From: Acutalibacteraceae bacterium
Lineage (GTDB): Bacteria; Bacillota; Clostridia; Oscillospirales; Acutalibacteraceae
Direction: 5' to 3'
Length of the DNA stretch: 64,000 nucleotides
NCBI GenBank assembly: GCA_045540355.1
Contig: JAZQHB010000008.1
Span: 31,183 to 95,182 of the forward strand
The translations under genes and the position numbers were made by a program. How positions within the stretch are numbered: the stretch's first letter is position 1; each line of letters opens with the position of its first letter. Positions 3,236 through 63,335 of the stretch are shown here, piece after piece. The notes under the pieces are model-generated. The model saw nothing but the letters and a program-made list of their open reading frames with translations, was not told the origin of the DNA and did not search any database.

Positions 3236-3267
3236 AAAATTACGATTTTTAATATTTACAACTTTTA

Positions 3268-3311
3268 AAAAGTATACTATACTGTTATTCATAAAGGTAT
3301 AGTATACTTTT
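3268..3311. promoter_or_regulatory. Perfect 15-bp inverted repeat (AAAAGTATACTATAC-N14-GTATAGTATACTTTT) followed by a T-run
   Basis: Read directly from the sequence. It lies between the par locus and the first T4SS-operon gene and contains TATACT -10-like boxes, so it could be a terminator for parM/R, an operator, or both. Confidence 0.55.
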
Positions 3312-3355
3312 ATTTTAGTTCAGCCTAAAATATTTACCTTGAAAGGAGTAAAATT

Positions 3356-12431: not shown

Positions 12432-12532
12432 TTGCAGGTTAGAAATTATTGTGTTAGAATAAAATTATAAAATTTATCAACAATATGGACTAACAATATA
12501 GAGATTTTCCGTAGGGAATTTCTCTTTTTTTC
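12432..12532 (+). promoter_or_regulatory. Promoter-leader-terminator module, copy G
   Basis: TTGCAG-N17-TAGAAT, then GGACTAACAATATAGAGATTTTCCGTAGGGAATTTCTCTTTTTTT. Same core as the copies at 37.7, 40.9, 44.5 and 63.2 kb. Confidence 0.6.
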
Positions 12533-12618
12533 AAATAGGGGTATGTCCCGAAAATAATCGGGGTATTCCACTATCCCCGTCGATATAGATAACAACACAA
12601 AGAAAGGAAAAGAAAAAT

Positions 12619-13176
12619 ATGAAAATATTTGAAAATGACAACTGGGAAAAATTATCCCTCAATAATGAAGTAGTACAGTACGGATATTACTATCCGTATA
12701 GAAATCCGGACGGAAGCGTAAACCCTAATTTCTACAAGGATCGTATTAGTGGTTATATTTTAGATGTAAAAGAAAAGAAGGAAAAAGCACTTAACTATTT
12801 TTACAATGTACTTAATACCGAGATTTGTAAAAATGTTACAATCTGCGTAGTTCCGTCGCATACCGCTTCTTCAACTAATCAATCTGGCATTTCCATACTG
12901 GCAAGAAGACTTGCAAATGATGAAAGGGTGGATAAAGTAGATTATCTTTTAAGAAGTAAATCTATTAACAAATTAGCGTCCGGTGGCGACAGAGATTTAT
13001 CTATTCACTTGGAAAGCATCAGACCAAACGAAGAAATGAGTATTTCGGGCGATGTTGTTCTTTTAGTTGACGATGTTACTACTTCCGGTGCATCTTTGCA
13101 GGCGTGCAAAGAAATTCTATTAAAGAATGGTGCTGAAAGAGTTGCAATGCTCGCATTGGGAAAATCTATCAGATAA
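12619..13176 (+). CDS. Type I phosphoribosyltransferase-fold protein (ComF-like)
   Basis: PRPP-binding loop VVLLVDDVTTSGASL near the C-terminus; 185 aa; no N-terminal zinc finger. Confidence 0.7.
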   Translation: MKIFENDNWEKLSLNNEVVQYGYYYPYRNPDGSVNPNFYKDRISGYILDVKEKKEKALNYFYNVLNTEICKNVTICVVPSHTASSTNQSGISILARRLANDERVDKVDYLLRSKSINKLASGGDRDLSIHLESIRPNEEMSISGDVVLLVDDVTTSGASLQACKEILLKNGAERVAMLALGKSIR

Positions 13177-19034: not shown

Positions 19035-19171
19035 AATAATCTCTCCTTTCAAGTTGAAAATTTGTTAGTCAAAAGTTTTTGTTGTTTGTTATGTACTCAT
19101 TATTACACATTTAGCAGTAAAAAGCAAATATTTACGATTTCGCACCCTTTTATTCGCAGAGGACAATCACG

Positions 19172-27759: not shown

Positions 27760-29109
27760 ATGGCAAAAAAATTAAGCGACGACATTGAGATTATGTCAAA
27801 AGAAGAAGTCCTTGAAAATCTCGATGCAGAAGCAACACCGAATGTAGTGGCAGAAGGCTACATACCGACAGAAGATGTGGAAGCCGAAATGGAATATCGT
27901 GACACACACCCTGTTGAAGCAGAAGGCGATGAACCCGCCGAAGAAGAAATCGTCGTAGGCAACGATCCGCTTCCGGAAGATTATGTCCCGGAAGATTTAG
28001 GTCCTGTCGAAACAATCGACGAAACAAGCAACTTGGAAAGTGCAATGGACGAATTATCGGAAGAAGACCGAAAGATTATGGAAGCATTACTTTCCAAAAC
28101 CCAGTTCTATTCAAGAAAGAACTTAAAAGCAAAGCAGTCGATACATAGGGAAATGTTCCGTTCCGAGCATATCGTAACAGCATCTCCCGACGACAAGGTG
28201 GAAACCGAGAGTACAAAGTTAATGGAAGACTTTACAATGTTAAATGCTTCCGCACAGAGCAAGCGTATCTTGGAAGGAAAGATTACGGGTTGCCACCCTG
28301 CAAATCCCGACAATCCTTTATCAACCACCCTTGCGGAAGTAAAGTTTGGAAACGGCACTTGTAAGGTTTTAATTCCCGACTATTTGCTTTTCGATTATGA
28401 AATTGGAAAATACCGCAACACTCCCGAACAGGCAAATGTGGCAGTGGCGGTTCGTGATATGATTGGCTTAACCGTAAGATTTACGGTTACACAGCTTGAC
28501 AGAGCAACCAAGACTGCATACGCAGACAGATTACAGGCATTAGACACCGACGGCTATTTTAACTATGTAAAACCTACCAAAGACGGCAAGCCCCGTATTA
28601 CCGCAGGTATGATTGCACAGGGTAGAGTAGTAAGAAGAAATAAGAAAACCGTAACAATCTGTGCATTAGGTGCAGAAAGAACATTAAGAGCCAACGCTGA
28701 TGAAAACGAAATCTGCTGGAATTATTGCGATGATTTCAGAGATATGTTTAAGGTAGATCAGATTGTAAATGTAAAAATCCTCGAAGTAAAAACGAAGGAA
28801 GTTACAAAATACAACAATAACTACACTTTGGTTAAGCCCAAGTTCAGCTTAAAGCAGACCACAGTTAATCCTACGGATAAGTATTTCGACGACTTTGTAG
28901 AAAACGGTCACTATACCTGCGTAGTTACCTCATTGGCATCTACTGGTGTCTTTGTTCGCTTACCCGATATTGACGGTATGGACTGTTTGGTTGCATATCC
29001 GAAATTCGGAGAAATGCCGATGCCCGGACAGGCAAGAGTTATTAAGATTACAGAGAAAGAAATTGATGCCAACGGCAGAAAGAAAATCTTTGGAACCTTC
29101 GTGCAGTAA
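27760..29109 (+). CDS. S1-like RNA-binding domain protein with acidic N-terminal region
   Basis: Three OB/S1-like segments (ILEGKITGC..., MIAQGRVVRR..., GHYTCVVTSLASTGVFVRLPDIDGMDCLV). Confidence 0.55.
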   Translation: MAKKLSDDIEIMSKEEVLENLDAEATPNVVAEGYIPTEDVEAEMEYRDTHPVEAEGDEPAEEEIVVGNDPLPEDYVPEDLGPVETIDETSNLESAMDELSEEDRKIMEALLSKTQFYSRKNLKAKQSIHREMFRSEHIVTASPDDKVETESTKLMEDFTMLNASAQSKRILEGKITGCHPANPDNPLSTTLAEVKFGNGTCKVLIPDYLLFDYEIGKYRNTPEQANVAVAVRDMIGLTVRFTVTQLDRATKTAYADRLQALDTDGYFNYVKPTKDGKPRITAGMIAQGRVVRRNKKTVTICALGAERTLRANADENEICWNYCDDFRDMFKVDQIVNVKILEVKTKEVTKYNNNYTLVKPKFSLKQTTVNPTDKYFDDFVENGHYTCVVTSLASTGVFVRLPDIDGMDCLVAYPKFGEMPMPGQARVIKITEKEIDANGRKKIFGTFVQ

Positions 29110-29247: not shown

Positions 29248-29436
29248 TTGCAATTTTCTTCATTAAGTGCTATGATAAGGTCAAGAACTGGCGGGAGTTC
29301 TTTTCGGTATATTGGCAAATGCCAGTGTGCCTCCTTTCTTAAAGTTGAGAAACTTTATTTTGACAGCAAAAAGTTGTTGTTTGTTACAGTTACAATAAGA
29401 CCAAACCTTTCCCGCAGGATTGGTCTTCTTTTTTTA
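29248..29436 (+). promoter_or_regulatory. Promoter-leader-terminator module, copy H (ORF-less)
   Basis: TTGCAA-N17-TATGAT. Contains GACAGCAAAAAG. Terminator AAGACCAA..TTGGTCTTCTTTTTTT. Confidence 0.5.
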
Positions 29437-29458
29437 AAATAACAATTTGTTACTTTAT
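29436..29458. promoter_or_regulatory. Dispersed palindrome O4 (AAAATAACAATTTGTTACTTTAT, inverted orientation)
   Basis: Seen in sequence between modules H and I. Confidence 0.6.
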
Positions 29459-29469
29459 GAAGTAAAAAT

Positions 29470-29602
29470 TTGCAATCACGAATAAAAGGTGCTATACTAA
29501 ATTTAGCCTTACGGGAGGGCACCTTTCTAGTGACAACAAAAAATTATGTTACAGTCTTTAAGATAGAAAAAACCAAGACATTCCCGTTGTCTTGGTTTTT
29601 TT
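29470..29602 (+). promoter_or_regulatory. Promoter-leader-terminator module, copy I
   Basis: TTGCAA-N17-TATACT. Contains GTGACAACAAAAAA. Terminator AACCAAGACA..TGTCTTGGTTTTTTT. Paralogous to H. Confidence 0.5.
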
Positions 29603-34019: not shown

Positions 34020-34800
34020 CGGAAAAAATCGGTAAAAGATACGGAGTAGCGTGGTAAAAGATGCGGAGTAGTGCGGTAAAAGATACAGAGTAATTCGGTA
34101 AAATTTGGCAGGATTAAATACGGAGTAGTGCGGTAAAAGATACGGAGTAATTCGGTAAAAGATACGGAGTAGCGCGGTAAAAGATACGGAACAATTCGGT
34201 AAAATAGACGATTTAGCGGAAAAAAACAGTAAAAACAGCAATTAAAAAATAAGTGCTGAAATCGTAAGATTTTGAAAAGAATGTAAAAAAAGGGTAAAGG
34301 TACGGAAAAAATCGGTAAAAGATACAGAGAAAAACAGTAAAAGATACGGAATAATTCGGTAAAAATAGGGTTTATTACGGAGTAATTCGGTAAAAAACGC
34401 AGGAAAAACACCATATGATTACCCAAAAACTACATAAAAATAAAAAAAAGAGATAGAAAAAGCCTTACTTACGGAGAAATTCAGTAAAAGATGCGGAGTA
34501 ATTCGGTAAATATATGATTTATAACGGAGAAAATCGGTAAACATAATGTAGAAATATTCCTTGAAAAAAGTAAAGTTAATGAGCCAAAGTATTGTATTAC
34601 CGAAAATATCCGCTATAAAATCGTAAGTTTTTGAAAAAATCAATATTTAGTGTTTTTATAATTTCAACACATACAAAATAAGAAAAATCCCCCACCTTTT
34701 TAACGGAAAAAAACAGTAAAATAGTAATTGACAAGGTATAATAGTAAGCCTTATAATAAAATTGTTTTTAACGGAAAAAAACAGTAAAAAGCAAATGAGG
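34020..34800 (+). repeat. Iteron array (at least 15 copies of CGGTAAAAGATACGGAGTAnnn, 22-bp phase); putative theta-type oriV
   Basis: GGTAAAAG cores at 34031, 34053, 34075, 34097, 34132, 34154, 34176, 34198, 34314, 34336, 34358, 34389, 34483, 34505 and 34536. Degenerate copies flank the rep promoter. Confidence 0.85.
34700..34790 (+). promoter_or_regulatory. rep promoter (TTGACA-N17-TATAAT) bracketed by a direct repeat TTAACGGAAAAAAACAGTAAAA
   Basis: Seen in sequence; the arrangement is typical of Rep autoregulation. Confidence 0.6.
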
Positions 34801-34811
34801 GGATTACAAAA

Positions 34812-36032
34812 GTGGAAGAAAACAAAAAAAATGAGGAAGATACTTCTTTGGCGATTTATGTTGAAAAAGAAGATATAGTTGCAAAAATATGCAATGTTAT
34901 ATTAAAAGCAAAATATAAAACAACGCTATTGGAACAAAAAGTTTTACTTATGTCGCTTGCCCGTATCAGTAATTATAAAATAGAAAAAGGAACCGGGGCA
35001 TTAGTATCTACGCTTGATGTTGCTGATATAAAAAATTGTATCGGAAGAAAAGGAAACTCATTATATGATGAATTGGAAGAAGTAGCCGATAATATGACAG
35101 ACCGCAAAATTGCATTTTCGGATCCCGAAAAAAAAGAGTTTGATTATATGTCGCTTATCATTCGTGCAACTTGTAAAAACGGTAAATTTAAGATTTATTA
35201 TAATCCGTATTTAAGAAATTACATATTAGACATCACTACTAACTATACACCACTTATGGAAAAGATAACAATGTCTTTTAATAGCCTTCATTCGTCCCTG
35301 CTTTATCAAGCATTAAAGCAAAAAGCATATACACCGGGCGAAAAGATTGATAAAACAAGTTTTGAAATAAGAACTTATGAGTTCGAGTACAATCTTGCGG
35401 AACTTTTACTGGACCTTGGATTAGTTGATGCAAATGCAGAAGAGGTAAAAAATATACTTAATAAATCAAAGACACCGGACTACGAAAAAGCTGTGGCAGT
35501 TGCAAAAGAAAAAAAATATAAAGCGTGGTATGATTTTGAAAGATATTCACTTCGTCCGGCAATTAAAGAAATCAATGAAAAAACAGATTTGCGGGTATCA
35601 TACGAAACCATAAAAAGAGGTAGAGGGGGAAAAATAACCGCATTATTATTTACAGTAGATGTAATACCTACGATAAGAACCGATTTACTCTCAAAAAAAG
35701 AGGAAGAAGTAATCACGATAACCGAAGACCAAAAAGACGAATACATAGACTGGTTATCAGACCTTATCGAAACGCCGTTAAAAGTGAAAGACCTGCGTAC
35801 TATCGCAGAAGAGGCAGGATATTCGCAGGAGAAAGCAGAAAAAGCCTACGCCATATTAAAATCCACTCCGCAGGTTGATAATGTGGTAGGATTTATGATT
35901 TCGGCGATCCGTAACAATTATTCCAGTTCCGGCGGGCAAAGCAATAAGGAAAGCAAAAAGAGCGCAAACGATAACATAATGAAGCAAGATTATGATATTG
36001 AAGCAATCGAAAAGGATATTTTGGCAAATTAG
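34812..36032 (+). CDS. rep: Plasmid replication initiator (Rep_3/RepB-like)
   Basis: Immediately downstream of the iterons. N-terminal KAKYKTTLLEQKVLLMSLARI resembles initiator winged-helix proteins. GTG start behind GAGGGG. Confidence 0.7.
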   Translation: MEENKKNEEDTSLAIYVEKEDIVAKICNVILKAKYKTTLLEQKVLLMSLARISNYKIEKGTGALVSTLDVADIKNCIGRKGNSLYDELEEVADNMTDRKIAFSDPEKKEFDYMSLIIRATCKNGKFKIYYNPYLRNYILDITTNYTPLMEKITMSFNSLHSSLLYQALKQKAYTPGEKIDKTSFEIRTYEFEYNLAELLLDLGLVDANAEEVKNILNKSKTPDYEKAVAVAKEKKYKAWYDFERYSLRPAIKEINEKTDLRVSYETIKRGRGGKITALLFTVDVIPTIRTDLLSKKEEEVITITEDQKDEYIDWLSDLIETPLKVKDLRTIAEEAGYSQEKAEKAYAILKSTPQVDNVVGFMISAIRNNYSSSGGQSNKESKKSANDNIMKQDYDIEAIEKDILAN

Positions 36033-36126: not shown

Positions 36127-36237
36127 TTGAAAAGTCAAAAAGTATATACTACAATATAAACATATTATTCCTTTTAGGAAATCAACAAATTTGGGCTGAC
36201 AAAAAGAGAAATCTAGCGATAGGTTTCTCTTTTTTTA
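36127..36237 (+). promoter_or_regulatory. Promoter-leader-terminator module, copy F
   Basis: TTGAAA-N17-TACAAT; CTGACAAAAAG; hairpin AGAGAAA..TTTCTCT plus T7. Confidence 0.55.
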
Positions 36238-36298
36238 TGTCGTAATTAACCTTAAAAACTGTAACAAACAAAATATAAAAGAAAGGTAAGGTAAGATT

Positions 36299-36880
36299 AT
36301 GGAAGAAAGGAAGGTACAGTTAGCAGATGTATCGGATTTGATTGATGTGGCATATCAGCAAATATCCGATGCGACAAAAAAACTCACTCCGGGGCTTCTT
36401 GATAAGCAAATGGCTTTTGCATTAAGCAAGAAACATATCGGCTGTGAGTACACCGTTAAGGAACTGAATGAGAGAAAACCGAAGGAACGGTACTCGTTTT
36501 ATTCTTTTACGGAAGTAAAAATTGCTTTGCAGGAGTTTTTTGGGGACACCTACAATTTAAAGCGTATAGCGAAGCAGTCAGTGATGCTTGATGAAGGCGA
36601 TAAGTTTTCAGAGAGTATTGATTGCGGTATGAAACTGGGGGAATTTTACGATACCCTAAACAACACCGTAACAGAAACCTCAATTTTAGAGGTAACAATG
36701 AAAGTAAGACCGTGGGGAAACCCAAACAGCACCACGGGATTGCCTTTCAATATTGTGGGTTTTCGATTACAGGCTGACGAAGAAGGTCAGTGGGTAAGAG
36801 AAATTGAACCTGCAAAAGAAATAAAGGAAGAGGAATGGGCTGAATGGAAACAAATGAATATTTTTCAGTTCATACGCTAG
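36299..36880 (+). CDS. Hypothetical protein (193 aa)
   Basis: First ORF after module F; no motif recognised. Confidence 0.65.
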   Translation: MEERKVQLADVSDLIDVAYQQISDATKKLTPGLLDKQMAFALSKKHIGCEYTVKELNERKPKERYSFYSFTEVKIALQEFFGDTYNLKRIAKQSVMLDEGDKFSESIDCGMKLGEFYDTLNNTVTETSILEVTMKVRPWGNPNSTTGLPFNIVGFRLQADEEGQWVREIEPAKEIKEEEWAEWKQMNIFQFIR

Positions 36881-36890
36881 GAGGTGTTTT

Positions 36891-37136
36891 ATGGATTATG
36901 TAATTATATCCAAGAAAGAACGCCTGCTGATGCGTGAAACCCTTGGACTTATGGCGTGGACGCATAACAGAAAAGTGCGTTACGCCCCAAAAAACCATAG
37001 CCTTGGTACCGATGCGGATTTTAAGCATTTGGTAGAGATAGGTTATGCAAAAAAGGAACCTTCCGGCGGTTATTCATTAACTGCCGAAGGTGTTTCTTTT
37101 GTAGAAACAGATATTAGAGCAAAAGTAATATTATAA
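36891..37136 (+). CDS. Hypothetical protein (81 aa)
   Basis: SD TAGGAGG. Confidence 0.6.
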   Translation: MDYVIISKKERLLMRETLGLMAWTHNRKVRYAPKNHSLGTDADFKHLVEIGYAKKEPSGGYSLTAEGVSFVETDIRAKVIL

Positions 37137-37150
37137 TTTGGAGGAAGAAA

Positions 37151-37585
37151 ATGAATAAAGTAATTGAAAATTTATTTGAAAAAAAGAAAGAGCAGGAAAC
37201 ACAATTAAAAATTTTACAAAAAGAGATGTCTTCTATTGAACAAATGTTGTTTGAAGAAATGACAAAAGAAACCAAACTTTACGAAAGTGTCGTAAAAAAC
37301 AATATGGCAGACATAATTTCAATAATACAAAAAAATGGGCTGGAATTTACTAATTATAGAACCGATAATGTTGTATCTATTGAAGTTTCAAGAAACAGCT
37401 ATAAGGCTCATATATTCATAAAGGACGGTACAGTAGTTACGGATTTAACAACATCTGATGTTTATAATAATGACGGATATTCAAAAGATATACTGTCAAG
37501 AACTCAAATAATGGTTAATAGTGATATTATTCCTTATTGTGAAAAAAACAAATTAAAATATGATAAAAACAACATTGATAATTGA
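37151..37585 (+). CDS. Hypothetical protein (144 aa), coiled-coil-like N-terminus
   Basis: SD GGAGGAAG. Confidence 0.6.
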   Translation: MNKVIENLFEKKKEQETQLKILQKEMSSIEQMLFEEMTKETKLYESVVKNNMADIISIIQKNGLEFTNYRTDNVVSIEVSRNSYKAHIFIKDGTVVTDLTTSDVYNNDGYSKDILSRTQIMVNSDIIPYCEKNKLKYDKNNIDN

Positions 37586-37588
37586 CAG

Positions 37589-37622
37589 TAAAAGGGCATA
37601 CCTCACGGTGTGCCTTTTTTAT
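37589..37622 (+). terminator. Intrinsic terminator
   Basis: AAAGGGCATA..TGTGCCTTTTTT. Confidence 0.7.
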
Positions 37623-37636
37623 TGAGAAAATAGTGC

Positions 37637-37748
37637 TTGCAATTTTCTCAATAATATTGTAAAGTATACTTGTAACATTACAACGACAAAAAAAGGCTAA
37701 TAGACGGAAGAAACTCCATAGGGGGTATCTTCCCTTTTTTTGTTGTCA
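37637..37748 (+). promoter_or_regulatory. Promoter-leader-terminator module, copy D
   Basis: TTGCAA-N17-TAAAGT, ATACTTGTAACAT, CGACAAAAAAAGGCTAATAGACGGAAGAAACTCCATAGGGGGTATCTTCCCTTTTTTTGTTGTC. Confidence 0.65.
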
Positions 37749-37756
37749 AAACTAAA

Positions 37757-37874
37757 TAGCAAGCACCGAACCCGTATAAAACGATGGTGTAGGGGAGGCT
37801 TGTAAGTAACAAAAAACTTATCACATTAAGAAAGGAGCCGTAAAAAAAGAAGAGTACGGCAAAGGTAAGAACTT
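37757..37874 (+). promoter_or_regulatory. Conserved structured 5' UTR element, copy 1
   Basis: Blocks CAAGCACCGAACC, GGTGTAGGGGAGGCTTGTAAG and GTACGGCAAAGGTAAGAA are identical to 62779-62873, with divergent loops between them. Confidence 0.55.
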
Positions 37875-38195
37875 ATGAAAAAAATGAAAATGTTGGTATT
37901 GACATTGATATTGGCACTGTGCGTAGTGCCGATGCTGGGTAGTGTAACAGCGGAAGCCTTCGCAGAACCCGCTGACATACGCTATTCGCCCGGTTATTGT
38001 CCTGTGTGGGACAGTACCGATTTCTCCTCCGAGCCTATCGGGGAGATCAGTGGTATCAATACCACATTTCTACTGTTAGAAACGGTAGATACATACTATG
38101 CACTCGTCCGGACGGCTGACGGAACAGAAGGCTATGTGCCTTTGGATTTCTGCCAGCTGACAACCCCGCTTGAACCTGCGGTTGCCGGACTGTAA
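37875..38195 (+). CDS. Small secreted SH3b-like protein
   Basis: Signal peptide MKKMKMLVLTLILALCVVPMLGSVTAEA. YYALVRTADGTEGYVPLDF resembles a bacterial SH3 domain. Confidence 0.55.
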   Translation: MKKMKMLVLTLILALCVVPMLGSVTAEAFAEPADIRYSPGYCPVWDSTDFSSEPIGEISGINTTFLLLETVDTYYALVRTADGTEGYVPLDFCQLTTPLEPAVAGL

Positions 38196-38338
38196 AAATA
38201 ACAACGAGAATGGGGCGGGCGAATGTCTGTCCCTTTCTTGATTTTGGGGCTACTCCCTCAAAGTTTAACTGTTGGGAGTGGCTACCCTTGCAGTTGATTG
38301 TTTTTGCAAAGCCAAACACAGCAACGGAGGAAAACCCT

Positions 38339-38683
38339 ATGAAGATTACAAAAAAAATGAAAGGTGCGGAAAGCACCAAAACACTTCTTCTTGGAAGAGA
38401 GGAAGTAAAAGTGAAAGATGCGGATATGGATAATATATTGGCATCGGTATTCGGAACACCCGACATCAGTTTAAGCACGGAAGCCAGTATTGAATATTTG
38501 CTTGCCCGTAACAATCTGATGCAGGGTTTAAGAATTTTTCTTGGTAATCCTTTCATTACGCAGAATATTCTTTCTGCAAATGAAGAAGGGATAACCATAG
38601 ATGCAAAGAAAATAAACAAAGAAACCGCTGATACTATCGTGCGGTATGCTTTGTTTGGAACACAGTGGGAAGATGCCGTATAG
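38339..38683 (+). CDS. Hypothetical protein (114 aa)
   Basis: Start moved to ATG 38339 behind ACGGAGGAAAA. Confidence 0.55.
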   Translation: MKITKKMKGAESTKTLLLGREEVKVKDADMDNILASVFGTPDISLSTEASIEYLLARNNLMQGLRIFLGNPFITQNILSANEEGITIDAKKINKETADTIVRYALFGTQWEDAV

Positions 38684-38722
38684 CGTCTTCCTTTTATTGT
38701 AAAAAAGAGAGGAGGGGTATTT

Positions 38723-39058
38723 ATGAAGAATACCAAAATCAACTATCTCTATCGTGATGCAGATAATTATAAGATGCACAACGAAGTGGTAGTGGAAGGG
38801 CAGTTCACGCCCAAAATGAAGGAAACTATAAAAAATGCTCTTGATTGTGGAGAGTATTTTATTCCTTCGCAGGTGGGTTTACCCGAAAAGCGTTTCGATG
38901 ATTGTACCGATGCAGACCACTGTTATTTTGAATTAGATGTAGACAATGATTTTGTCGAAACTGATGAAGAACCAACAGTGGAACTCACAGCAGAAGAATT
39001 GACAAATGCCTTTGCAAATGTCCCTTACTGGGACTGTGACAAGGAAGGGGGATTATAG
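38723..39058 (+). CDS. Hypothetical protein (111 aa)
   Basis: SD GAGGAGGGG. Confidence 0.6.
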   Translation: MKNTKINYLYRDADNYKMHNEVVVEGQFTPKMKETIKNALDCGEYFIPSQVGLPEKRFDDCTDADHCYFELDVDNDFVETDEEPTVELTAEELTNAFANVPYWDCDKEGGL

Positions 39059-39060
39059 AT

Positions 39061-39258
39061 ATGACCGGAAAAGAATGGTTATTGAAAAATCCTGCCCTTA
39101 TGGAAGGCATTGCAGAAGCAATCGTTTGCGGAGAAAAGCAGTATTTTGCTCCGGTACCGCAGGAGTACGCTGATGAAATCGTTGACATTCTTATAAATGT
39201 CGAAGAAGTCGTAAATATTGAGAAAACCACAGAAGGATTATGGATTTATTTCCGTTAA
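39061..39258 (+). CDS. Hypothetical small protein (65 aa)
   Basis: SD GAAGGGGG; tightly coupled to the previous gene. Confidence 0.55.
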   Translation: MTGKEWLLKNPALMEGIAEAIVCGEKQYFAPVPQEYADEIVDILINVEEVVNIEKTTEGLWIYFR

Positions 39259-39288
39259 TTCTTCTGCAAAGAAGGGAGAAGGTTGATT

Positions 39289-39762
39289 ATGAAAACATCG
39301 ACAAGAGAGCGTATCGTTCTAAATGCTCTTGCAAGTAATAACCTTAATGAAATGGAAAATGTATATATTATGTGTTCTTCCTATCCGGTTAAGGGTATTG
39401 ATAGACTACGGAGAGAAATCCTGCGTAGAAGAGGAGAGGGTATGCTTTTTGTGATCCTTAACACGCAGGAAGCAAAGAAGTGGGTAGAAAAAAATATGTA
39501 TGAAGCAGACCTTTGCTTACTTCCTTTGGAAAGAGCAGTGAATACAGGGCTTTTGATACCCATTGATAAAGGATATTATGTAGTAAAAGAAACCGTTACT
39601 AATCAATGTACTTGGGTAATTGAAGAAGTACGGAAACTGACTGCCGAAGAAATGGCAGAAAATAATCTGTACTTACCGTATCGGTTTACTGCCCGTATAA
39701 AAGAATGTCCCGATGATTACGAAGGGGCAAGAGAAATTAGTGCAGGTTTTGATTTGCACTGA
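39289..39762 (+). CDS. Hypothetical protein (157 aa)
   Basis: SD GGGAGAAGG; start moved to ATG 39289. Confidence 0.6.
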   Translation: MKTSTRERIVLNALASNNLNEMENVYIMCSSYPVKGIDRLRREILRRRGEGMLFVILNTQEAKKWVEKNMYEADLCLLPLERAVNTGLLIPIDKGYYVVKETVTNQCTWVIEEVRKLTAEEMAENNLYLPYRFTARIKECPDDYEGAREISAGFDLH

Positions 39763-39836
39763 TAAAGATATGTAGTATAATAGGGAGGAGGACGAAAGTT
39801 CTCTTTCCTTTTTATTTAAGAGAGGAGATATTTTAT

Positions 39837-40538
39837 ATGAACATTGAAAAAGCGAGAGCTGTTGCAAAGAATTTTCTTTGGCTGGATATGGAACGGCACC
39901 CGAAATTTCCGTTTGTAGTAACGCACCCGGTCTTTGAAAGTTCTTATATGATGAACAGCAATAAAGAATGTTTCGATGCGTTTGAAGATGAAGAAAAATT
40001 CAGAGAGCATCGAAAGAACTATGAAAAGCAGATAGATAAGGTCACTGATTTTTCAGAATTTCTTTCTTGGCTTATTCGTAAAGCGTATATTCTTACCTTT
40101 TTGAAATTTGCAGAGGACGAAGGTGCAATCACAACCCAAGAAGCCTGCAAATATTTGGTAGAAAATTGGTGTCGTATCGAAAACATCGGCACTGATGTCA
40201 ATGTTTCAAAAGCGAGAATACGCAAATGGCTGTTGCAGATTGACCGTGAAGAGATGCTGGAAGAGAATGAATACAAAAGATACTGTTATCTTTCTGACGA
40301 GGTAACGCTGTATCGTGGTGTCCGGTCTGACAGTAAAGAAGCAATCTACGGATTTTCGTGGACGGCAAGCAAATCTACGGCAGAGTTCTTTGCTACTCGC
40401 TGGGGCGATGAAGGAACTGTTTATGAAGCTAAAATCAAGAGAGAAGATATTTTCTTTACGGAATATGGCAGAAATGAACAGGAATATATCGTAGATTATA
40501 AGAAATTATATGATGCAAAAGAAATAAAAGAAATATAG
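39837..40538 (+). CDS. ADP-ribosyltransferase-like protein (R-S-E type)
   Basis: C-terminal TLYRGV (Arg), GFSWTAS (S-x-T) and NEQEYIV (E-x-E) occur in the canonical order. Confidence 0.5.
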   Translation: MNIEKARAVAKNFLWLDMERHPKFPFVVTHPVFESSYMMNSNKECFDAFEDEEKFREHRKNYEKQIDKVTDFSEFLSWLIRKAYILTFLKFAEDEGAITTQEACKYLVENWCRIENIGTDVNVSKARIRKWLLQIDREEMLEENEYKRYCYLSDEVTLYRGVRSDSKEAIYGFSWTASKSTAEFFATRWGDEGTVYEAKIKREDIFFTEYGRNEQEYIVDYKKLYDAKEIKEI

Positions 40539-40548
40539 GAGGTATCAA

Positions 40549-40845
40549 ATGTACGACTGGATTATATGGTACGGAGAACCGCAGACTTGCTTTATGAGAA
40601 GCGGTTATAAGTACCCGACAGAAGACAAAGCAAAGTTTGAAGGCGAAGACTTTGCAAGAAGAACAGCAGGAAGTTTTATGGGACAGCCCGAACCTTATCC
40701 TAATAACCGCGTTGAAGTTATAAAGTTAAAAGACGATGATGTGGCGGTATATCTGATGAAAAAGTATGGATTGGAAGATAGTTATGTAGCGTCCTTGACA
40801 GAAATTTCAGAAGAACGGGTTGCACAACTTCGTAAAAAGATGTAA
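40549..40845 (+). CDS. Hypothetical protein (98 aa)
   Basis: SD TAGGAGG. Confidence 0.6.
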   Translation: MYDWIIWYGEPQTCFMRSGYKYPTEDKAKFEGEDFARRTAGSFMGQPEPYPNNRVEVIKLKDDDVAVYLMKKYGLEDSYVASLTEISEERVAQLRKKM

Positions 40846-40850
40846 TTATA

Positions 40851-40881
40851 ATCCACTCTCTTAATGAGGGTGGATTTTTTT
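40851..40881 (+). terminator. Intrinsic terminator (ATCCACTCTC-TTAAT-GAGGGTGGAT plus T7)
   Basis: Seen in sequence. Confidence 0.8.
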
Positions 40882-40885
40882 ATTG

Positions 40886-41000
40886 CTTGCAAAACAGTGT
40901 ATATTATACTATAATAACCTTGTAACATATTTTTGACAACAAAAAAAGACTAACAATGAGGAAGAACTCCGTAGGGGTATCTTCCTTTTTTTTGTTGTCA
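40886..41000 (+). promoter_or_regulatory. Promoter-leader-terminator module, copy A
   Basis: TTGCAA-N17-TATAAT, AACCTTGTAACAT, GACAACAAAAAAAGACTAACAATGAGGAAGAACTCCGTAGGGGTATCTTCCTTTTTTTTGTTGTC. Confidence 0.7.
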
Positions 41001-41029
41001 CAATCACAAAAAAGAGAGGAGTGTTCAAT

Positions 41030-41998
41030 ATGAACCGTAAAGAAATTGAAATGGAATTGATGAAACACGATAGTACCGTTTTATCTTTTCCGAACCGAGG
41101 ACCGTGGGGTTCGTCACAGTACAGAGGAAATTGCAGTGGCTACATTCACGCTTTCTTGATATGGAAATACCGTGTTGAGAAAATGGCTGAATTATTCAGC
41201 GGTAGCGGGACGGGATATGATGTTTGCAAAGATATGGGAATTTCATATGTCGGTGCCGACTTAAATCCTACTCCCGTGCGTCCGGGAGTATTGAATGTAA
41301 ATGCAATTACAGATGATGTTCCCGAAGAGTTTATGGACGCGGATATGCTGTTTATGCACCCGCCTTATTCAAACATCTGCAATATCAGTTGGGCGGGCAA
41401 GCATTACGCTGATCCTACGGGAGAACTTGCAAGGGCAGATTTAGGGAATATGAACTGGGAACAGTTTATGTCTACCTTAAACGCTATCGTAATGAAATAC
41501 TATTCCGCTATGATGAATGGCGGTAAAATGAGTATTTTAATGGGCGATGTGCGAAGAAAACCCATTGGCTTTAAGAGTATGTTTGCTGATATTGTCAAAC
41601 CCGGGCAGTTAGAGCAGGTAATTATTAAATTACAGCACAATACTGTGTCCGGCAGAGAGAACATCTCATACGGGGCAAGGAATTTCGTACCTATCGAACA
41701 CGAATACCTTATGGTACTCAAAAAGATTGCACCCTATCTGATTGATTTTTCACTGCCTACAAAGCACGAAATTGACATCAGAGATAGTAAGAGTGCAACT
41801 TGGAGAGATGTGGTTTATGCAGTAATGCAGAAGATAGGTCACGATGCACCACTGGAAGCAATCTATGCAGAAGTCGAAGGACATAGCAAATGTGCTACAA
41901 ACTCTGAATGGAAAGCAAAAATCAGACAGACACTCCAACAAAGCGATAAGTTCGTCAATGTTTCATACGGTGTATGGGCGTTGGCAAAGGTAGCGTAA
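41030..41998 (+). CDS. Orphan DNA methyltransferase (amino-MTase type) with C-terminal winged-helix-like domain
   Basis: Motif I ELFSGSGTG; motif IV-like MHPPY. The C-terminal ...ATWRDVVYAVMQKIG...EWKAKIRQTLQ...YGVWAL resembles Mrr-N-type wHTH. No adjacent endonuclease. Confidence 0.7.
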   Translation: MNRKEIEMELMKHDSTVLSFPNRGPWGSSQYRGNCSGYIHAFLIWKYRVEKMAELFSGSGTGYDVCKDMGISYVGADLNPTPVRPGVLNVNAITDDVPEEFMDADMLFMHPPYSNICNISWAGKHYADPTGELARADLGNMNWEQFMSTLNAIVMKYYSAMMNGGKMSILMGDVRRKPIGFKSMFADIVKPGQLEQVIIKLQHNTVSGRENISYGARNFVPIEHEYLMVLKKIAPYLIDFSLPTKHEIDIRDSKSATWRDVVYAVMQKIGHDAPLEAIYAEVEGHSKCATNSEWKAKIRQTLQQSDKFVNVSYGVWALAKVA

Positions 41999-42016
41999 GG
42001 AAGGAGGGCAAAGCTG

Positions 42017-42361
42017 ATGAAGAGAGCAGACATCGAAGAACGCTTAAAAGATAAGCGTTTTTCAAATTGGAAAGAAGCAGGTAGTATATTACTGCTTGAT
42101 TTAGTAACCAAAGATATTATTGAAATATCCAAAGGCTACGGCGACAATCTTTTACCCGAAGATTACGAGGCTGGGTACGACGCATACTTGAATATTGAAG
42201 TGTGGGAGTACGATAGTCCGGGATTTACGGAAAAGGACGGAGGAATGATTATGTATAAGTCGGAGGTGTGTGATTTAGCCGAAAATTTATACGGTGCAGT
42301 AGAGAGGGCGGTTGCAGAAGTCGGAATTAAGGACTTTATGGCAATCGCTTTATATGATTAG
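42017..42361 (+). CDS. Small acidic protein (114 aa)
   Basis: SD GGAAGGAGGG. Confidence 0.6.
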   Translation: MKRADIEERLKDKRFSNWKEAGSILLLDLVTKDIIEISKGYGDNLLPEDYEAGYDAYLNIEVWEYDSPGFTEKDGGMIMYKSEVCDLAENLYGAVERAVAEVGIKDFMAIALYD

Positions 42362-42371
42362 GAGGAAAGAA

Positions 42372-42875
42372 ATGAAGAAAACATTATTTATTGTGACTTC
42401 TGTTATTTTTACAGAATATGCAGAAGTAGGACTTGAAGCAGTGAATGTAAAACCTTTTGCTACAAGGGACGAAGCTAATGATTTTGTGCTTAATACACTT
42501 GCAAAAAATTGGGTGGAAAAAAATAAAGGTACCATAGAAGAAAATGGTGGCTTGCCCGAAGATTTCTACAACGATATTGAAGAAATGGAAGACTTCCTTA
42601 TCCGCTTGGAAGAAAACGGGTACCACTCGTTTACTTTTGATATTAAGGAAGAAGAAATTGACTTTTCAGAAGTATACTTCGCCGAAAAGTGCTGGCACAA
42701 GGACGATATTGCGTCTGAAATTATTGGTGCCGGATATGAAGCTACCGAAGAAAATATCAACGAAGTGCTTAATACGATGCAGGCGAAAGGTTATATGTCA
42801 GTTCTGCTCGATTGCACCGATGCGGAATGGGATATTATTGACCGTGCCGTAGAAGAAACATTGGGAGGTAAATAA
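42372..42875 (+). CDS. Acidic protein (167 aa)
   Basis: Start moved to ATG 42372 behind TAGGAGGAAAG. Confidence 0.6.
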   Translation: MKKTLFIVTSVIFTEYAEVGLEAVNVKPFATRDEANDFVLNTLAKNWVEKNKGTIEENGGLPEDFYNDIEEMEDFLIRLEENGYHSFTFDIKEEEIDFSEVYFAEKCWHKDDIASEIIGAGYEATEENINEVLNTMQAKGYMSVLLDCTDAEWDIIDRAVEETLGGK

Positions 42876-42878
42876 GAT

Positions 42879-43271
42879 ATGAGAGAAATACTATTTAAAG
42901 CAAAGCGAATTGATAATGGAGAATGGGTGGAAGGCTATTATGTTAAAACAGGAGAAGCAAGTTACATAGTAGTTCCATATTCACAAGCAGATATTTCGGG
43001 AGCAGAAGGTAGTACCATTGAAGTAGATGCAAACACCATCTGTCAATTTACAGGACTTACAGACAAGAACGGCAACAAGATTTGGGAGAATGATATTGTG
43101 ATAGGAAGAGAAGGGTATTGCGGAAATTCAAAACTTCCCACAAGGGAAATCAAGTTTAAAGTTGAATATTTCCATTGTTGCTATCGGTGGTTAGATAATT
43201 CAGATATGTATGAATTTGAAGTGATTGGCAATATCATTGATAACCCGGAATTGATGAAGGAGGGAAAGTAA
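42879..43271 (+). CDS. YopX-family protein
   Basis: ILFKAKRIDNGEWVEGYYV...ICQFTGLTDKNGNKIWENDIV is the typical YopX signature. Confidence 0.8.
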   Translation: MREILFKAKRIDNGEWVEGYYVKTGEASYIVVPYSQADISGAEGSTIEVDANTICQFTGLTDKNGNKIWENDIVIGREGYCGNSKLPTREIKFKVEYFHCCYRWLDNSDMYEFEVIGNIIDNPELMKEGK

Positions 43272-43273
43272 TT

Positions 43274-43651
43274 ATGGAACACAAACAGATTATTTACGGG
43301 GAGTATGTACTTACTCCCTGCCAAAATGCGTTCAATGAGAAAACATCGTATTGGCTTTCAAAGAAAGACCACACGATTGCAGTCTATGCGTTTACGCCTA
43401 TGGACGCAAAGGATTTGAAAGAAATGACGACTGATGAAAGTATGCAGTCGTACATTAGCCACTTTGAAGAAAAAGCAGGTGCCAAGACAAAGAATGAAAT
43501 TATCAGTATGCTTCGTGAGATGCAGAAGGAAACGGCTAAATGCGTAGGCTTTATTGCAGGTACCGTTTCACAGCTTTGGGTAATCCGGGAATTGCTTGGA
43601 ACCAGTATCGAAAAACTTGGTGGCGAAAGTATTGAGATAAGAATTGAATAA
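43274..43651 (+). CDS. Hypothetical protein (125 aa)
   Basis: SD GAAGGAGGGAAAG. Confidence 0.6.
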   Translation: MEHKQIIYGEYVLTPCQNAFNEKTSYWLSKKDHTIAVYAFTPMDAKDLKEMTTDESMQSYISHFEEKAGAKTKNEIISMLREMQKETAKCVGFIAGTVSQLWVIRELLGTSIEKLGGESIEIRIE

Positions 43652-43664
43652 GGAGGGTGCAGAG

Positions 43665-43946
43665 ATGTATTTATTGGAAGCAGAAGTGTACTTCTTGGAA
43701 GTGGAAAAAAGCAGAACCTTTAAGGTATATGCTCACACTCTCGAAGATGTAAAAACAATGAAAATTTCGGAACTTATCTTAAAGGCAGGTTCCGAATTAG
43801 GTATTTCAAAAAGCGATGCAGTCGTTTTCTGTTCTTATACGCTCAATGGAGAATATGTAGACAGCGACGAATACTTCGTTGAATATACCGAGGAAAAAAC
43901 AATGTGGGAGGGCAACGCTTATGGTAGGTCAAATGTCGCTGTTTGA
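43665..43946 (+). CDS. Hypothetical protein (93 aa)
   Basis: Start moved to ATG 43665 behind AAGGAGGG. Confidence 0.55.
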   Translation: MYLLEAEVYFLEVEKSRTFKVYAHTLEDVKTMKISELILKAGSELGISKSDAVVFCSYTLNGEYVDSDEYFVEYTEEKTMWEGNAYGRSNVAV

Positions 43947-44295
43947 GTTACTTACTCCTGCAAAAGAAGGTTGCCTTGTTACCTTTGACGAAGACATCAA
44001 CGAAATTTGTCGTAGATTATCTTCATTTGCTGAAAAGCAAGGTATAAGTACGGGCAAAACAGAATTTTCCATTTGGGATCACGCCAAAGAATACGGGTAC
44101 CGATTGGATTACACTCTGAATGTAACAAAAGAGGTCTTAACAGACCTCTTTTTTGCAGAGTTACAGGAGATTGTAGATTTTGCAAAAACTAAAAACATCG
44201 AACTCTCGCCTATGACATCATTGTTTTGGCGGGACGGAACAGCGTCTATGTATGTGTTTAGCACATATTTAGACAGCAGAAAGAAACGGAGGTAG
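43921..44295 (+). CDS. Hypothetical protein (124 aa)
   Basis: Start moved to ATG 43921 behind GGGAGGG; 26-nt overlap with the previous ORF. Confidence 0.55.
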   Translation: MVGQMSLFELLTPAKEGCLVTFDEDINEICRRLSSFAEKQGISTGKTEFSIWDHAKEYGYRLDYTLNVTKEVLTDLFFAELQEIVDFAKTKNIELSPMTSLFWRDGTASMYVFSTYLDSRKKRR

Positions 44296-44300
44296 AGTTT

Positions 44301-44453
44301 ATGAGTAAGATAGAACTCACAGAGAAGGAATTAAAAGAACGGGAAAAGGCTATAAAGTCTGACAAAACCAAATATTTCTATGATGAAAATGGAAATGAAT
44401 ATTGGTGGAGTAAAGACGATTACAAAAAGCACTACACCCGTGACGAAGGATAA
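44301..44453 (+). CDS. Small ORF (50 aa), not in the ORF track
   Basis: Own translation MSKIELTEKELKEREKAIKSDKTKYFYDENGNEYWWSKDDYKKHYTRDEG; SD ACGGAGG. Confidence 0.45.
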   Translation: MSKIELTEKELKEREKAIKSDKTKYFYDENGNEYWWSKDDYKKHYTRDEG

Positions 44454-44499
44454 TTGTATCAAGAAGGGAGTGGCTACGGTCACTCTCTTTTTTTATAGC

Positions 44500-44608
44500 T
44501 TGAATATTTCGTGAAACTATATTATAATAGCCTTGTAACGGCAAATAACAAAAAATTGACTAACAAAGAGGAAGAAATCCTACGGGGTATCTTCCTTTTT
44601 TGCTGTCA
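44500..44608 (+). promoter_or_regulatory. Promoter-leader-terminator module, copy C
   Basis: TTGAAT-N17-TATAAT, AGCCTTGTAAC, TTGACTAACAAAGAGGAAGAAATCCTACGGGGTATCTTCCTTTTTTGCTGTC. Confidence 0.65.
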
Positions 44609-46936: not shown

Positions 46937-46962
46937 ATAAGCAACTGACAAACAACAATTTT

Positions 46963-54084: not shown

Positions 54085-54122
54085 AAAAAATTACCGTAGG
54101 CGAAGGCTTACGGTAATTTTTT
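54085..54122 (+). terminator. Intrinsic terminator (AATTACCGTA..TACGGTAATTTTTT)
   Basis: Seen in sequence. Confidence 0.8.
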
Positions 54123-54196
54123 GACTTTATATATGTGAAAAAGTATAATATACATAGAAAGGAAAAGGAAAAGAAACGCGGGCTTGTTTCTTTTTA
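54121..54196 (+). promoter_or_regulatory. Promoter (TTGACT-N17-TATAAT) plus short leader hairpin AAGAAAC..GTTTCTT-TTTT (same architecture, different sequence)
   Basis: Seen in sequence upstream of 54227. Confidence 0.5.
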
Positions 54197-62468: not shown

Positions 62469-62600
62469 TTGCACTTACCAAAAAATTATAGTATATTATA
62501 TTTATTAAAAAATAACGACAAAATATGCTAACAAATAGAGAGAAGAACTATACGGGGATATTCCGTAAAAGTGACTTCTCTTTTTTGGTTTTGTTGTTGC
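62469..62600 (+). promoter_or_regulatory. Promoter-leader-terminator module, copy E
   Basis: TTGCAC-N17-TATATT; CGACAAAATATGCTAACAAATAG; hairpin AGAGAAG..CTTCTCT plus TTTTTGGTTTTGTTGTTG. Confidence 0.55.
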
Positions 62601-62766: not shown

Positions 62767-62778
62767 ACAATTTAATAA

Positions 62779-62876
62779 CAAGCACCGAACCTAATAAGTA
62801 GGTGTAGGGGAGGCTTGTAAGAACACAATAAAAAGAAAGGACCGCACCACGACGGGTACGGCAAAGGTAAGAAAAA
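62779..62876 (+). promoter_or_regulatory. Conserved structured 5' UTR element, copy 2
   Basis: Same three identical blocks as 37760-37871, ending at the start codon. Confidence 0.55.
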
Positions 62877-63194: not shown

Positions 63195-63306
63195 TTGCAC
63201 TTTTAAGTAAATTATACTATAATAACCTTGTAACATATTTTTGACAACAAAAGACTAACAATGAGGAAGAACTCCGTAGGGGTATCTTCCTTTTTTTTGT
63301 TGTCAC
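63195..63306 (+). promoter_or_regulatory. Promoter-leader-terminator module, copy B (near-identical to A)
   Basis: 63211-63306 matches 40902-41000, differing only by a 3-nt A-run length difference. Confidence 0.7.
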
Positions 63307-63335
63307 GAACACTATTTTAAGAAAGGGGGTTGCCT

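Follow-up and report, generated by a model that had tools for sequence, protein, structure and literature searches.

Protein-mediated antitermination at a single leader terminator is well described for BglG, SacY and LicT, which act with ribonucleic antiterminator (RAT) sites, and for HutP and GlpP. On plasmids, one factor can coordinate many operons through repeated DNA operators at promoters, as do KorA and KorB of RK2 and omega of Inc18. Conjugative plasmids must hold expensive establishment and anti-defence genes silent in the donor yet express them rapidly in a new host; Gram-negative plasmids achieve this timing via single-strand promoters, and Bacillus and Enterococcus elements by a single processive antiterminator heading a long operon. 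To our knowledge, plasmids of gut Lachnospiraceae are almost unstudied. In conAn of pLS20 and canT of Tn916, one loading region heads the long operon, with either a 260-600-nt RNA plus ConAn1 (PF17362, pXO2-34) or a cis-acting RNA (PMC8191782, PMC11658703). Here we analysed 64,000 nucleotides of contig JAZQHB010000008.1 (positions 31,183 to 95,182; hereafter the window), which is part of a Gram-positive conjugative theta plasmid, and found a family of intergenic modules in which a promoter is followed by a short leader and an intrinsic terminator, and only then by the gene. A conserved box of the leader, CUAACAA, adjoins the terminator hairpin. The data support a shared regulon that acts at the level of the leader RNA, and we favour, with a probability of roughly 0.4, conditional read-through that would depend on this box, a local antitermination gating all family members together.

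In the four most similar modules, A to D, the promoter (TTGCAA/TTGAAT-N17-TATAAT/TAAAGT) is followed by a start-site box, CTTGTAAC, which begins 4 nt past the -10, and then in turn by an A-rich arm, the box G(A/G)CTAA(C/T)A(A/G), a hairpin (GGAAGA..CUCC-loop-GGGG..UCUUCC), T6-8 and a 3' arm G(T/C)TGTC. The members of the family, and the leaders that share single features with them, are listed below with their covariance-model scores.

40887-40999, plus strand: module A, the type copy (91 bits; terminator -13.9 kcal/mol); -35 TTGCAA at 40887-40892 and -10 TATAAT at 40910-40915; start-site box CTTGTAAC at 40919-40926, the likely transcription start being G 40922; distal arm GACAACAAAAAAA at 40935-40947; box GACTAACAA at 40948-40956; hairpin at 40960-40985, U8 at 40986-40993 and 3' arm GTTGTC at 40994-40999; then a Shine-Dalgarno sequence (SD) at 41014-41021 and the ATG, at 41030, of an orphan DNA methylase-like gene.
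63196-63306, plus strand: module B (84 bits); leader identical to that of A except for an A-tract 3 nt shorter; small open reading frames (ORFs) from 63336 downstream.
44500-44607, plus strand: module C (69 bits); -35 TTGAAT, -10 TATAAT at 44523-44528; start-site box at 44532-44539; box GACTAACAA at 44558-44566; hairpin at 44570-44595, U6, arm GCTGTC; a 203-aa gene at 44638 downstream.
37637-37747, plus strand: module D (76 bits); -10 TAAAGT; start-site box at 37669-37676; variant box GGCTAATAG at 37695-37703, with three transitions and 3'-arm pairing retained via G.U; hairpin at 37706-37733, U7, arm GTTGTC; then a second conserved hairpin and a gene at 37875.
12432-12531, plus strand: module G, divergent (32 bits, E 7e-4); promoter TTGCAG-N17-TAGAAT; box GACTAACAA at 12488-12496; a different hairpin at 12501-12524, U7, without 3' arm; the ComF-like/DprA operon at 12619 downstream.
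36127-36242, plus strand: module F, divergent (28 bits, E 4e-3), just 3' of rep; promoter TTGAAA-N17-TACAAT; AUCAACAA tract; variant box GGCTGACAA at 36194-36202; a different hairpin, U7, arm TGTCG; orthologues at L003 11272-11351 and L006 11289-11365.
62469-62600, plus strand: module E, a weak member (21 bits, E 0.12); promoter TTGCAC-N17-TATATT; box TGCTAACAA at 62526-62534; a longer hairpin (-17.8 kcal/mol), U6; arm UUUUGUUGUUG with partner AACGACAAAA; about 275 nt more leader 3'.
29248-29602, plus strand: H and I, two tandem promoter-leader-terminator units before the MBL/RecG operon, outside the sequence family.
54121-54196, plus strand: unit X, a promoter and then a leader with a weak hairpin and U-run, of unrelated sequence.
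39753-39815, plus strand: a unit like X, also of unrelated sequence.
19062-19090, minus strand: a box-only leader, ACAAACAACAAAAAC-UUUU-GACUAACAA, in the 5' untranslated region (UTR) of an SH3/CAP lipoprotein gene, without terminator.

The covariance model was built from 14 copies of the A-D type. In the window the family has four tight members (A-D) and three divergent ones (G, F and E), and about four further leaders share its architecture only. An earlier reading of the letters alone (the sequence-only reading) had counted at least nine copies. Modules A-D were confirmed on inspection, with their parts where that reading had placed them (69-91 bits), and G, F and E also belong, the scores of all seven spanning 21-91 bits. 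However, H and I scored at the level of noise and share the layout alone. The units at 54121 and 39753-39815 likewise scored as noise, in agreement with the earlier description of the former as similar in architecture and different in sequence. By our own reading of the intergenic regions, the plus strand has about 20 units, and about 7 of them carry family members and about 4 an unrelated leader terminator; the earlier statement that modules precede nearly every plus-strand operon is thus reduced to about 11 of about 20 units, 7 of these in the family. The SD was said to follow the terminator closely, which applies to A, B, C and F only (20-45 nt), whereas D, G and E have 70-275 nt of additional structured leader before the gene.

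The leaders are 60-80 nt long and A/U-rich (GC 0.24-0.36), one per promoter. The box, whose family consensus is G(A/G)CU(A/G)A(C/U)AA, ends a CAA-rich single-stranded tract and lies 1-4 nt 5' of the hairpin. Its form GACTAACAA occurs five times in the window (0.64 expected), always in sense-strand 5' UTRs, and TTTTTGTTGTC five times (0.17 expected). CAA-rich tracts (ACAAACAACAA) are also seen in terminator-less leaders at 46937-46960 (RecD2-like gene) and, on the minus strand, at 19072-19090 (lipoprotein gene), and CAA-type motifs are enriched about 3-7-fold in sense-strand leaders, by patterns that were partly post hoc.

Alignment of 17 distinct A-D-type copies from three plasmids revealed conservation in blocks. 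On the 5' side, the -35 CTTGCAA, part of the -10 and CTTGTAAC (about -3 to +5) are 90-100% conserved, as are AACAAAA, GACTAACAA, GGAAGA, ACTCC, GGGGTA, CTTCC, T7 and GTTGTC on the 3' side. The promoter spacer, the 10-20 nt past the start site, the loop and everything 3' of the arm are conserved to 40-60%. The sequence-only reading had taken 'CCGTAGGGG' for a conserved loop; CUCC and GGGG are instead the strands of the inner helix, and the 3-5-nt loop between them varies. Directly 5' of the -35, the terminator of the preceding operon is also alike in many copies (GAGTGGCTACNG..ACTCTC-T7), so that the repeated unit is the whole intergenic cassette of about 190 bp.

The terminator hairpin is found in the fold of every copy, with z-scores of -4 to -5. 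Each terminator consists of a G+C-containing hairpin with an immediate U-run, as in intrinsic terminators, and the helices are backed by covariation. The energies are -14 to -18 kcal/mol with U6-8 (F -7.8 and G -11.5), in the same range as those of the plasmid's operon-end terminators, which agrees with the earlier view that these are strong terminators at which, as written, most transcripts should stop. In a model-fitted alignment of 22 copies, 92% of the cells of the hairpin are paired, compared with 51-71% when the strands are slid, and 11 of 20 pairs have changes on both sides, nearly all in the two terminator helices. The inner-helix U.G pair is retained in 16 of the 22 copies, and because of such conserved U.G pairs the plus-strand RNA folds better than the minus strand, by 3.5-7 kcal/mol. 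According to RNAalifold, GAC(U)AACAA can also pair with UUGUUGUC 3' of the U-run, forming an outer helix that has the U as a bulge; the distal GACAAC-A7 arm, where present, can use the same partner. This outer helix is 94% paired, with variation chiefly by single transitions, and was not counted as covariation; one copy (L057 2696) has a coordinated GCGAC/GUCGUC change. In most copies the GUUGUC arm after the U-run pairs back as proposed earlier, closing a rod of about 25 bp, with module G, which has no 3' arm, as an exception. Since GUUGUC lies beyond the termination point, the rod is possible only in read-through RNA. For transcripts terminated at the U-run, folding predicts a single-stranded box (unpaired with P 0.68-0.92). 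On the minus strand, distal-arm copies read as the rod and then U7, a terminator of the reverse direction.

Rep homologues grouped the window with uncultured Lachnospiraceae plasmids, the Rep relatives being at 79% in the metagenome-assembled genome (MAG) RGIG8549 (water-deer caecum) and at 68% in a Logan assembly; an identical Rep was found on an NCBI contig of 105 kb. In the 79% relative the modules are at orthologous positions, with at least 12 A-D-type copies and the F orthologue on two contigs and varied genes downstream; in the 68% relative, one or more A-D-type copies and the F orthologue are present. More distant Rep_3 loci contain no family copies. Two more distant conjugative elements, reached via homologues of an S1-like protein (see below), have the same box directly 5' of a terminator of unrelated sequence:

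L082 18270-18353: box-terminator leader with GGCUAAUAA, 5' of rep.
L083 1168-1245: box-terminator leader with CAACUAACAAUGAGAU.

The box thus stands directly 5' of terminators with unrelated hairpins in G, E, F, L082 and L083, always in a sense 5' UTR, and it is also present in a leader without terminator; therefore it is the most persistent feature and is not tied to one hairpin. Its presence in the leader of a minus-strand gene (19062) shows that it follows gene orientation and not a fixed DNA strand. Conservation in related replicons beyond generic terminator features, on which the earlier proposal of a regulon depended, was found for the start-site box, the CUAACAA box, the stem sequence and the GUUGUC arm. 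Such shared, non-generic sequence persisting in related replicons indicates common recognition, that is, a regulon.

A covariance-model search had been suggested by the sequence-only reading, and it found the family in related plasmids. The known collections are without it. Rfam 15 gave no match at the gathering score over the whole window, and permissive scans of the module region gave noise only. Module A had no match in PLSDB (word-11 blastn), the IMG/VR pattern scan returned just two chance matches in coding sequence, and a hairpin-anchored pattern found three unrelated ordinary terminators and no family member in JGI metagenomes. A hairpin-agnostic pattern hit 64 loci in GTDB genomes, of which only those of one Lachnospiraceae MAG (RGIG8549) are real.

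Because the terminator is as good as any on the plasmid, most transcripts are predicted to end at about 60-80 nt, and because the genes behind the modules have no other promoter, their expression depends on read-through. The patchy conservation and the single-stranded box beside terminators that have been replaced suggest that something reads the box, and thus favour local box-dependent antitermination. We propose that by default the transcripts would end as 60-80-nt RNAs, and that the establishment and accessory operons, which include the orphan methylase, ComF/DprA and many small genes of no assigned function, would be expressed by read-through only. One trans-acting factor would set read-through jointly at all cassettes, binding the box and the neighbouring 5' side of the hairpin on the nascent RNA and hindering hairpin closure; the mode would be local, RAT/LicT-like antitermination, not Q-like modification of the polymerase. 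In the read-through RNA, GUUGUC would pair with the box or with the distal GACAAC arm to form the rod of about 25 bp, which is a probable stabiliser of the mRNA 5' end, and on the opposite strand the same sequence might be a terminator shielding the promoter. That termination takes place in vivo, that a factor relieves it and which factor this may be are what we infer from these features.

Several points weigh against box-dependent read-through. In the helix formed by the box and the 3' arm, nearly every change is a single transition that leaves a wobble or no pair, which is what chance would give. Unrelated leader terminators exist on the same plasmid (H, I, X and 39753), so leader termination is perhaps a general habit in which the box is not needed. 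The three plasmids of the tight family are merely 11-25% diverged in DNA, so conservation of orthologues says little; as evidence of selection it was discarded as uninformative, the flanking DNA itself being 75-89% identical. Conservation between paralogues could come from recent duplication or gene conversion. In addition, the window covers 64 of about 105 kb of the plasmid, and read-through, judged from sequence, could be constitutive.

This last point leads to the most serious alternative, in our view somewhat less probable than box-dependent read-through, in which the cassettes are constitutive attenuators and insulators with no dedicated factor. A strong promoter and a leaky bidirectional terminator would give a fixed low output, keep out transcription from the upstream operon as well as antisense transcription from downstream, and provide the mRNA with a stabilising 5' rod. 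The family would have arisen from duplicated intergenic cassettes serving as recombination joints for cargo shuffling, and the conserved boxes would be inherited or part of the terminator A-tract. This agrees well with the likeness of the whole cassette between copies, including the upstream terminator GAGTGGCTACNG..ACTCTC-T7, with the unrelated cargo genes downstream, with the numerous copies in the sister plasmid, with the rod and U7 on the minus strand of distal-arm copies, with the close relationship of the plasmids, and with the finding of no regulator among the window ORFs scanned. However, conservation would not be expected to be patchy, with boxes and stem strands fixed while spacer and loop drift. 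The box is kept beside fully replaced hairpins in elements whose S1-like proteins are 43-51% identical, and it is found in a leader without any terminator. In addition, setting a constant low level with a terminator as strong as -14 to -18 kcal/mol and U6-8 is costly. Even as constitutive units, the cassettes would still provide small, portable promoter-attenuator-insulator parts, and they would mark modular gene shuffling.

Box-dependent read-through needs a factor. About 80 window ORFs were scanned with Pfam, NCBIfam and PHROG, and none has a Q, N, NusG/KOW, ConAn1, CAT/PRD or ANTAR domain. This extends the sequence-only reading, which recognised no Q-, N- or NusG-like gene, to KOW and ConAn1 (PF17362); no HutP protein was found in these ORFs either. 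For the Q family, the absence of a match applies to the ORFs scanned, many small ORFs being without family and about 41 kb of the plasmid lying outside the window. One candidate is an S1-domain protein, which had been named as a speculation.

27760-29109, plus strand: gene of a 449-aa multi-S1 protein, beside the coupling-protein gene.

The S1 assignment is real, with 3-4 tandem S1/OB folds over residues ~170-449 and a disordered N-terminal third. The family profile matched bS1 in the PDB at E 1.4e-16 with 3-4 matched stretches, and the AlphaFold2 model (predicted local distance difference test, pLDDT, 77.7; >85 over most of residues 150-449) had bS1 as the top Foldseek match (E 2.8e-12). Homologues of ~400-450 aa adjoin the coupling-protein genes of type IV secretion systems on several Firmicute conjugative elements (the window, L082, L083, L085 and L086); in L085 a cold-shock-domain gene lies immediately 5' of the S1-like gene. 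The link to the leaders is a partial co-occurrence. Box-terminator leaders are found near S1-like homologues in 5 of 7 elements, compared with 0 of 4 Rep_3 loci without an S1-like gene. Three points count against this link and with it against box-dependent read-through: L085 and L086 have S1-like genes and show no box-terminator leader in the retrieved DNA, the co-occurrence is a small sample confounded by shared ancestry, and the modelled S1/OB folds could equally bind the transferred single-stranded DNA (ssDNA). The multi-S1 protein is therefore a weak candidate for the factor that would read the box. It is doubtful, although attractive, that the modules form a plasmid-wide riboregulon, in which one plasmid single-stranded-RNA-binding protein, possibly the multi-S1 protein, would act on the CUAACAA/CAA-rich box and switch on 7-13 self-terminating operons together. 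If true, such a riboregulon, firing for example just after entry into a new host, would be a global establishment timer of Gram-positive conjugative plasmids, with a new antiterminator class and a new RNA motif.

A Q-like or other processive antitermination would place the decision at the promoter. In this alternative, which appears improbable, a factor would load on the polymerase at the promoter or start-site box CTTGTAAC and make it resistant to termination, so that only transcripts from these promoters pass the leader and internal terminators. The start-site box keeps a constant distance to the -10 and is 90-100% conserved, bypass of unrelated leader terminators (H, I, X and 39753) and of internal hairpins such as 38667-38692 would be explained, and antitermination of this type is established on Gram-positive conjugative elements (PMC8191782, PMC11658703). 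The sequence-only reading had likewise seen the logic of lambdoid Q/PR'-tR' control, with TAACAT as a -10-like element. However, this pause-like element is present in A, B, D and one relative only, the other copies having TAACAA, TAACGG, TAATAA or TAACTA, so that the element for sigma-dependent loading of Q is not conserved. As that reading itself had noted, the start-site box also follows promoters without terminator (59395, and 12376 and 17873 on the minus strand), which weakens the lambdoid parallel further. None of the window ORFs scanned has a recognised Q, N, NusG/KOW or PF17362 domain, the A/U-extended stems resemble a long-stem terminator that resists conAn antitermination (PMC10325885), and the CUAACAA box would be left unexplained.

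Alternatively, the terminated RNAs of ~70 nt could be the products, stand-alone small RNAs (sRNAs) acting in trans by pairing or as a protein sponge, with incidental read-through. From strong promoters and terminators one would expect short RNAs in abundance, each with an accessible 5' tract and the terminator and U-tail typical of sRNAs, and many near-identical copies would suit a sponge. We consider this to have a low likelihood, as every copy is directly 5' of and co-oriented with an SD and a gene without other promoter, no box-complementary target occurs elsewhere in the window, the pairing of H/I RNAs with the leaders is no better than in shuffled controls, and GUUGUC is conserved past the termination point, where it is relevant only in read-through RNA. 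Least probable by far is a function of the hairpins on the transferred strand, where they would prime synthesis or act as single-strand promoters while the plasmid establishes itself in the recipient, another suggestion of the sequence-only reading: the plasmid is rich in ssDNA-handling genes (DprA, RecG-like, RecD2-like, RNase H, OB-fold protein), all full copies lie on one strand and TAGCGA in the module F loop resembles the CS-6 element of ssoA origins, but the modules keep their place between a double-strand promoter and an SD, the box is on the other strand in the leader of a minus-strand gene and so tracks gene orientation, nothing in the hairpin mimics a -35/-10, the F orthologues differ in the CS-6-like loop (CTAATTTTAG, CTAGTGATAG), and a hairpin with a U-run directly next to it is typical of a terminator.

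Some more specific identities were also rejected. An ssoA/CS-6 element (TAGCGT/A) is not tenable, as TAGCGA is found only in the F loop of the window, the orthologues have TAATTTTA and TAGTGA, and the other modules are without it. CUAACAA and CTTGTAAC are not half-sites of the palindromic operator AAAGTAACAAATTGTTACTTT, because the sister plasmid has GGTATCATAATGATACTC in its place and keeps both leader boxes, which are thus independent of that repressor. The H/I leaders contain GACAACAAAAAA-like tracts as well as CCUCCUUUCU, which is anti-SD-like and similar to the 3' end of 16S rRNA, and the tandem leaders are kept in the sister plasmid (L003 4370-4790). As antisense regulators of the 5' ends of the A-D leaders, the H/I RNAs were discarded, since duplex energies equal those of shuffled controls and are inconsistent across copies. 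Box AUGs open ORFs through the terminator in A (40955-41032, 25 codons, with the stop overlapping the main ATG as ATGA) and B (63260-63320, 19 codons). The AUG is missing in C, D and most relatives, so the box ORF is probably fortuitous, and ribosome-mediated attenuation was rejected. An analogy with boxA/nut fails because the core GCUCUUUA-type sequence is missing; the box and E. coli rrn boxA have just UAACAA in common. The 8-nt boxA core recognised by NusB-NusE (PMC3177189) is absent from the modules.

Other conserved elements lie near the modules. A second leader hairpin, CAAGCaCCgaACC..loop..GGTgtaGGggaGGCTTG, is conserved 3' of D and E, just before the first gene. An SD-like sequence, a hairpin and an SD recur in this order directly 5' of start codons (GAAAGGAGCCGTACC..GGTACGGCAAAGGTAAG), an arrangement that may be a translational control element. 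A structured segment, GGGRTAT..CCCGAAAA..ATCGGGGTATTC..CCCCG, is conserved between the module G terminator and the ComF-like/DprA operon.

37757-37815 and 62776-62825 of the window, and L003 12395-12445: second leader hairpin, no Rfam match.
62838-62876 of the window, L003 11355-11400 and 12480-12518, and L006 after 11365: SD-like/hairpin/SD arrangement.
12533-12600 of the window, and L003 21100-21209 behind the promoter at the end of L003: GGGRTAT..CCCCG segment, no Rfam match.

The D operon contains, at an intergenic position (38667-38692), a terminator-like hairpin whose U-run is weak. No promoter follows it, so the genes at 38723-39762 appear to need read-through.

The plasmid itself has a Rep_3 origin and transfer functions.

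34812-36032: Rep_3 initiator gene, with direct repeats on both flanks.
3063, 19177, 26900, 26987, 29440, 31660 and 46968 of the window: sites of a palindromic operator.

A perfect promoter, TTGACA-N18-TATAAT, is located just 5' of rep (34690-34810), flanked by the direct repeat TTTTTAACGGAAAAAAACAGTAAAA; at the Rep_3 origin, these repeats probably serve as iterons or for autoregulation. Partition and transfer genes in the window encode ParA-like and ParM-like proteins, a VirB4-like ATPase and a VirD4-like coupling protein, and surface genes encode a cell-wall hydrolase, a sortase and an SpaA/thioester adhesin. From about 28 kb on, a long co-directional block contains ssDNA-handling genes and small genes of no assigned function, among them RNase H, MBL-fold, RecG-like, RecD2-like, ComF-like/DprA, orphan DNA methylase and YopX. 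The best coupling-protein relative in PLSDB is 38% identical (Butyrivibrio), and neither PLSDB nor the phage records had a nucleotide match to 36-45 kb by megablast. The operator is a palindrome of ~21 bp, ATAAAGTAACAAATTGTTAC/TTTTAT, at 7 intergenic or promoter sites, which form a separate regulon. At the same places (L003 ~4587, 4616 and 6840) the sister plasmid has the other palindrome, GGTATCATAATGATACTC, implying a swapped repressor specificity. A long inverted repeat, AAAAGTATACTATAC..GTATAGTATACTTTT, with TTTTATTTT after it, encloses the promoter region of the operon at 3356 (3256-3325); here, too, a hairpin overlaps a promoter, with a sequence unrelated to the modules.

Compared with known systems, the modules are similar to the targets of BglG/SacY/LicT-RAT, HutP and GlpP in having a promoter, a short leader and an intrinsic terminator, and one factor can serve several operons there. 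Furthermore, the conserved RNA site of the RAT type is at, or overlaps, the 5' flank of the terminator. However, the box matches none of those sites, adjoins the hairpin and forms no alternative hairpin, and 7-13 copies per replicon is unusually high. The modules differ from the operators of KorA/KorB and omega in that the repeated element is in the transcribed leader beside the terminator; a separate palindromic operator regulon is also present. PeSL cassettes of T4-type phages, reportedly described by Arbiol and co-workers in 2010, are said to be repeated units of a stem-loop terminator and a promoter flanking small accessory genes, and are thought to mediate modular shuffling. Similarly, the terminator, promoter and leader of the modules are alike between copies before unrelated genes, as expected of a mobile cassette. 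PeSL cassettes differ in being from phage and unrelated in sequence, without a terminator after the promoter or a leader box.

The lambdoid PR'-qut-tR' unit (PMC9388147) shares with the modules a constitutive strong promoter, a short terminated RNA and a conserved start-site element, whereas here many loci are involved instead of one, and neither a conserved pause element (TAnnnT) nor a Q homologue was found. Like conAn and canT, the modules belong to a conjugative element of Firmicutes that uses terminators, there combined with read-through control. They differ in being a 70-nt unit at each promoter, with PF17362 absent from the window ORFs scanned, and the 60-80-nt A/U-rich leaders do not have the features of the conAn2-type RNA region (260-600 nt, GC-rich tract, stem-loops). 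Similar to cATT of pLS20 (PMC13401043) and the long-stem terminator TerR (PMC10325885), complementary flanks lengthen a central hairpin by pairing of an A-tract with a U-tract. In cATT, the extension competes with the downstream terminator and is thus the antiterminator, whereas here the central hairpin is the terminator (PMC13401043). Unlike cATT, the stem extension of the modules needs sequence made after the termination point; minimum-free-energy and centroid structures keep the terminator in all copies, and no upstream complement of its 5' strand was found. TerR is at the operon end, and the modules come after the promoter (PMC10325885).

Therefore, the logic of the cassette is closest to RAT-type leader antitermination and its layout to PR'-tR', and it is a member of neither. 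Neither the CUAACAA-box RNA motif nor its controlling factor has been described before, and the family would define an undescribed RNA motif in gut Lachnospiraceae plasmids. The cassette is a case of leader attenuation/antitermination with an undescribed RNA motif in an unusual multi-copy deployment. If regulated, it would represent a third design beside single-strand promoters and the single processive antiterminator, one in which many independent operons are gated at the same post-initiation step.

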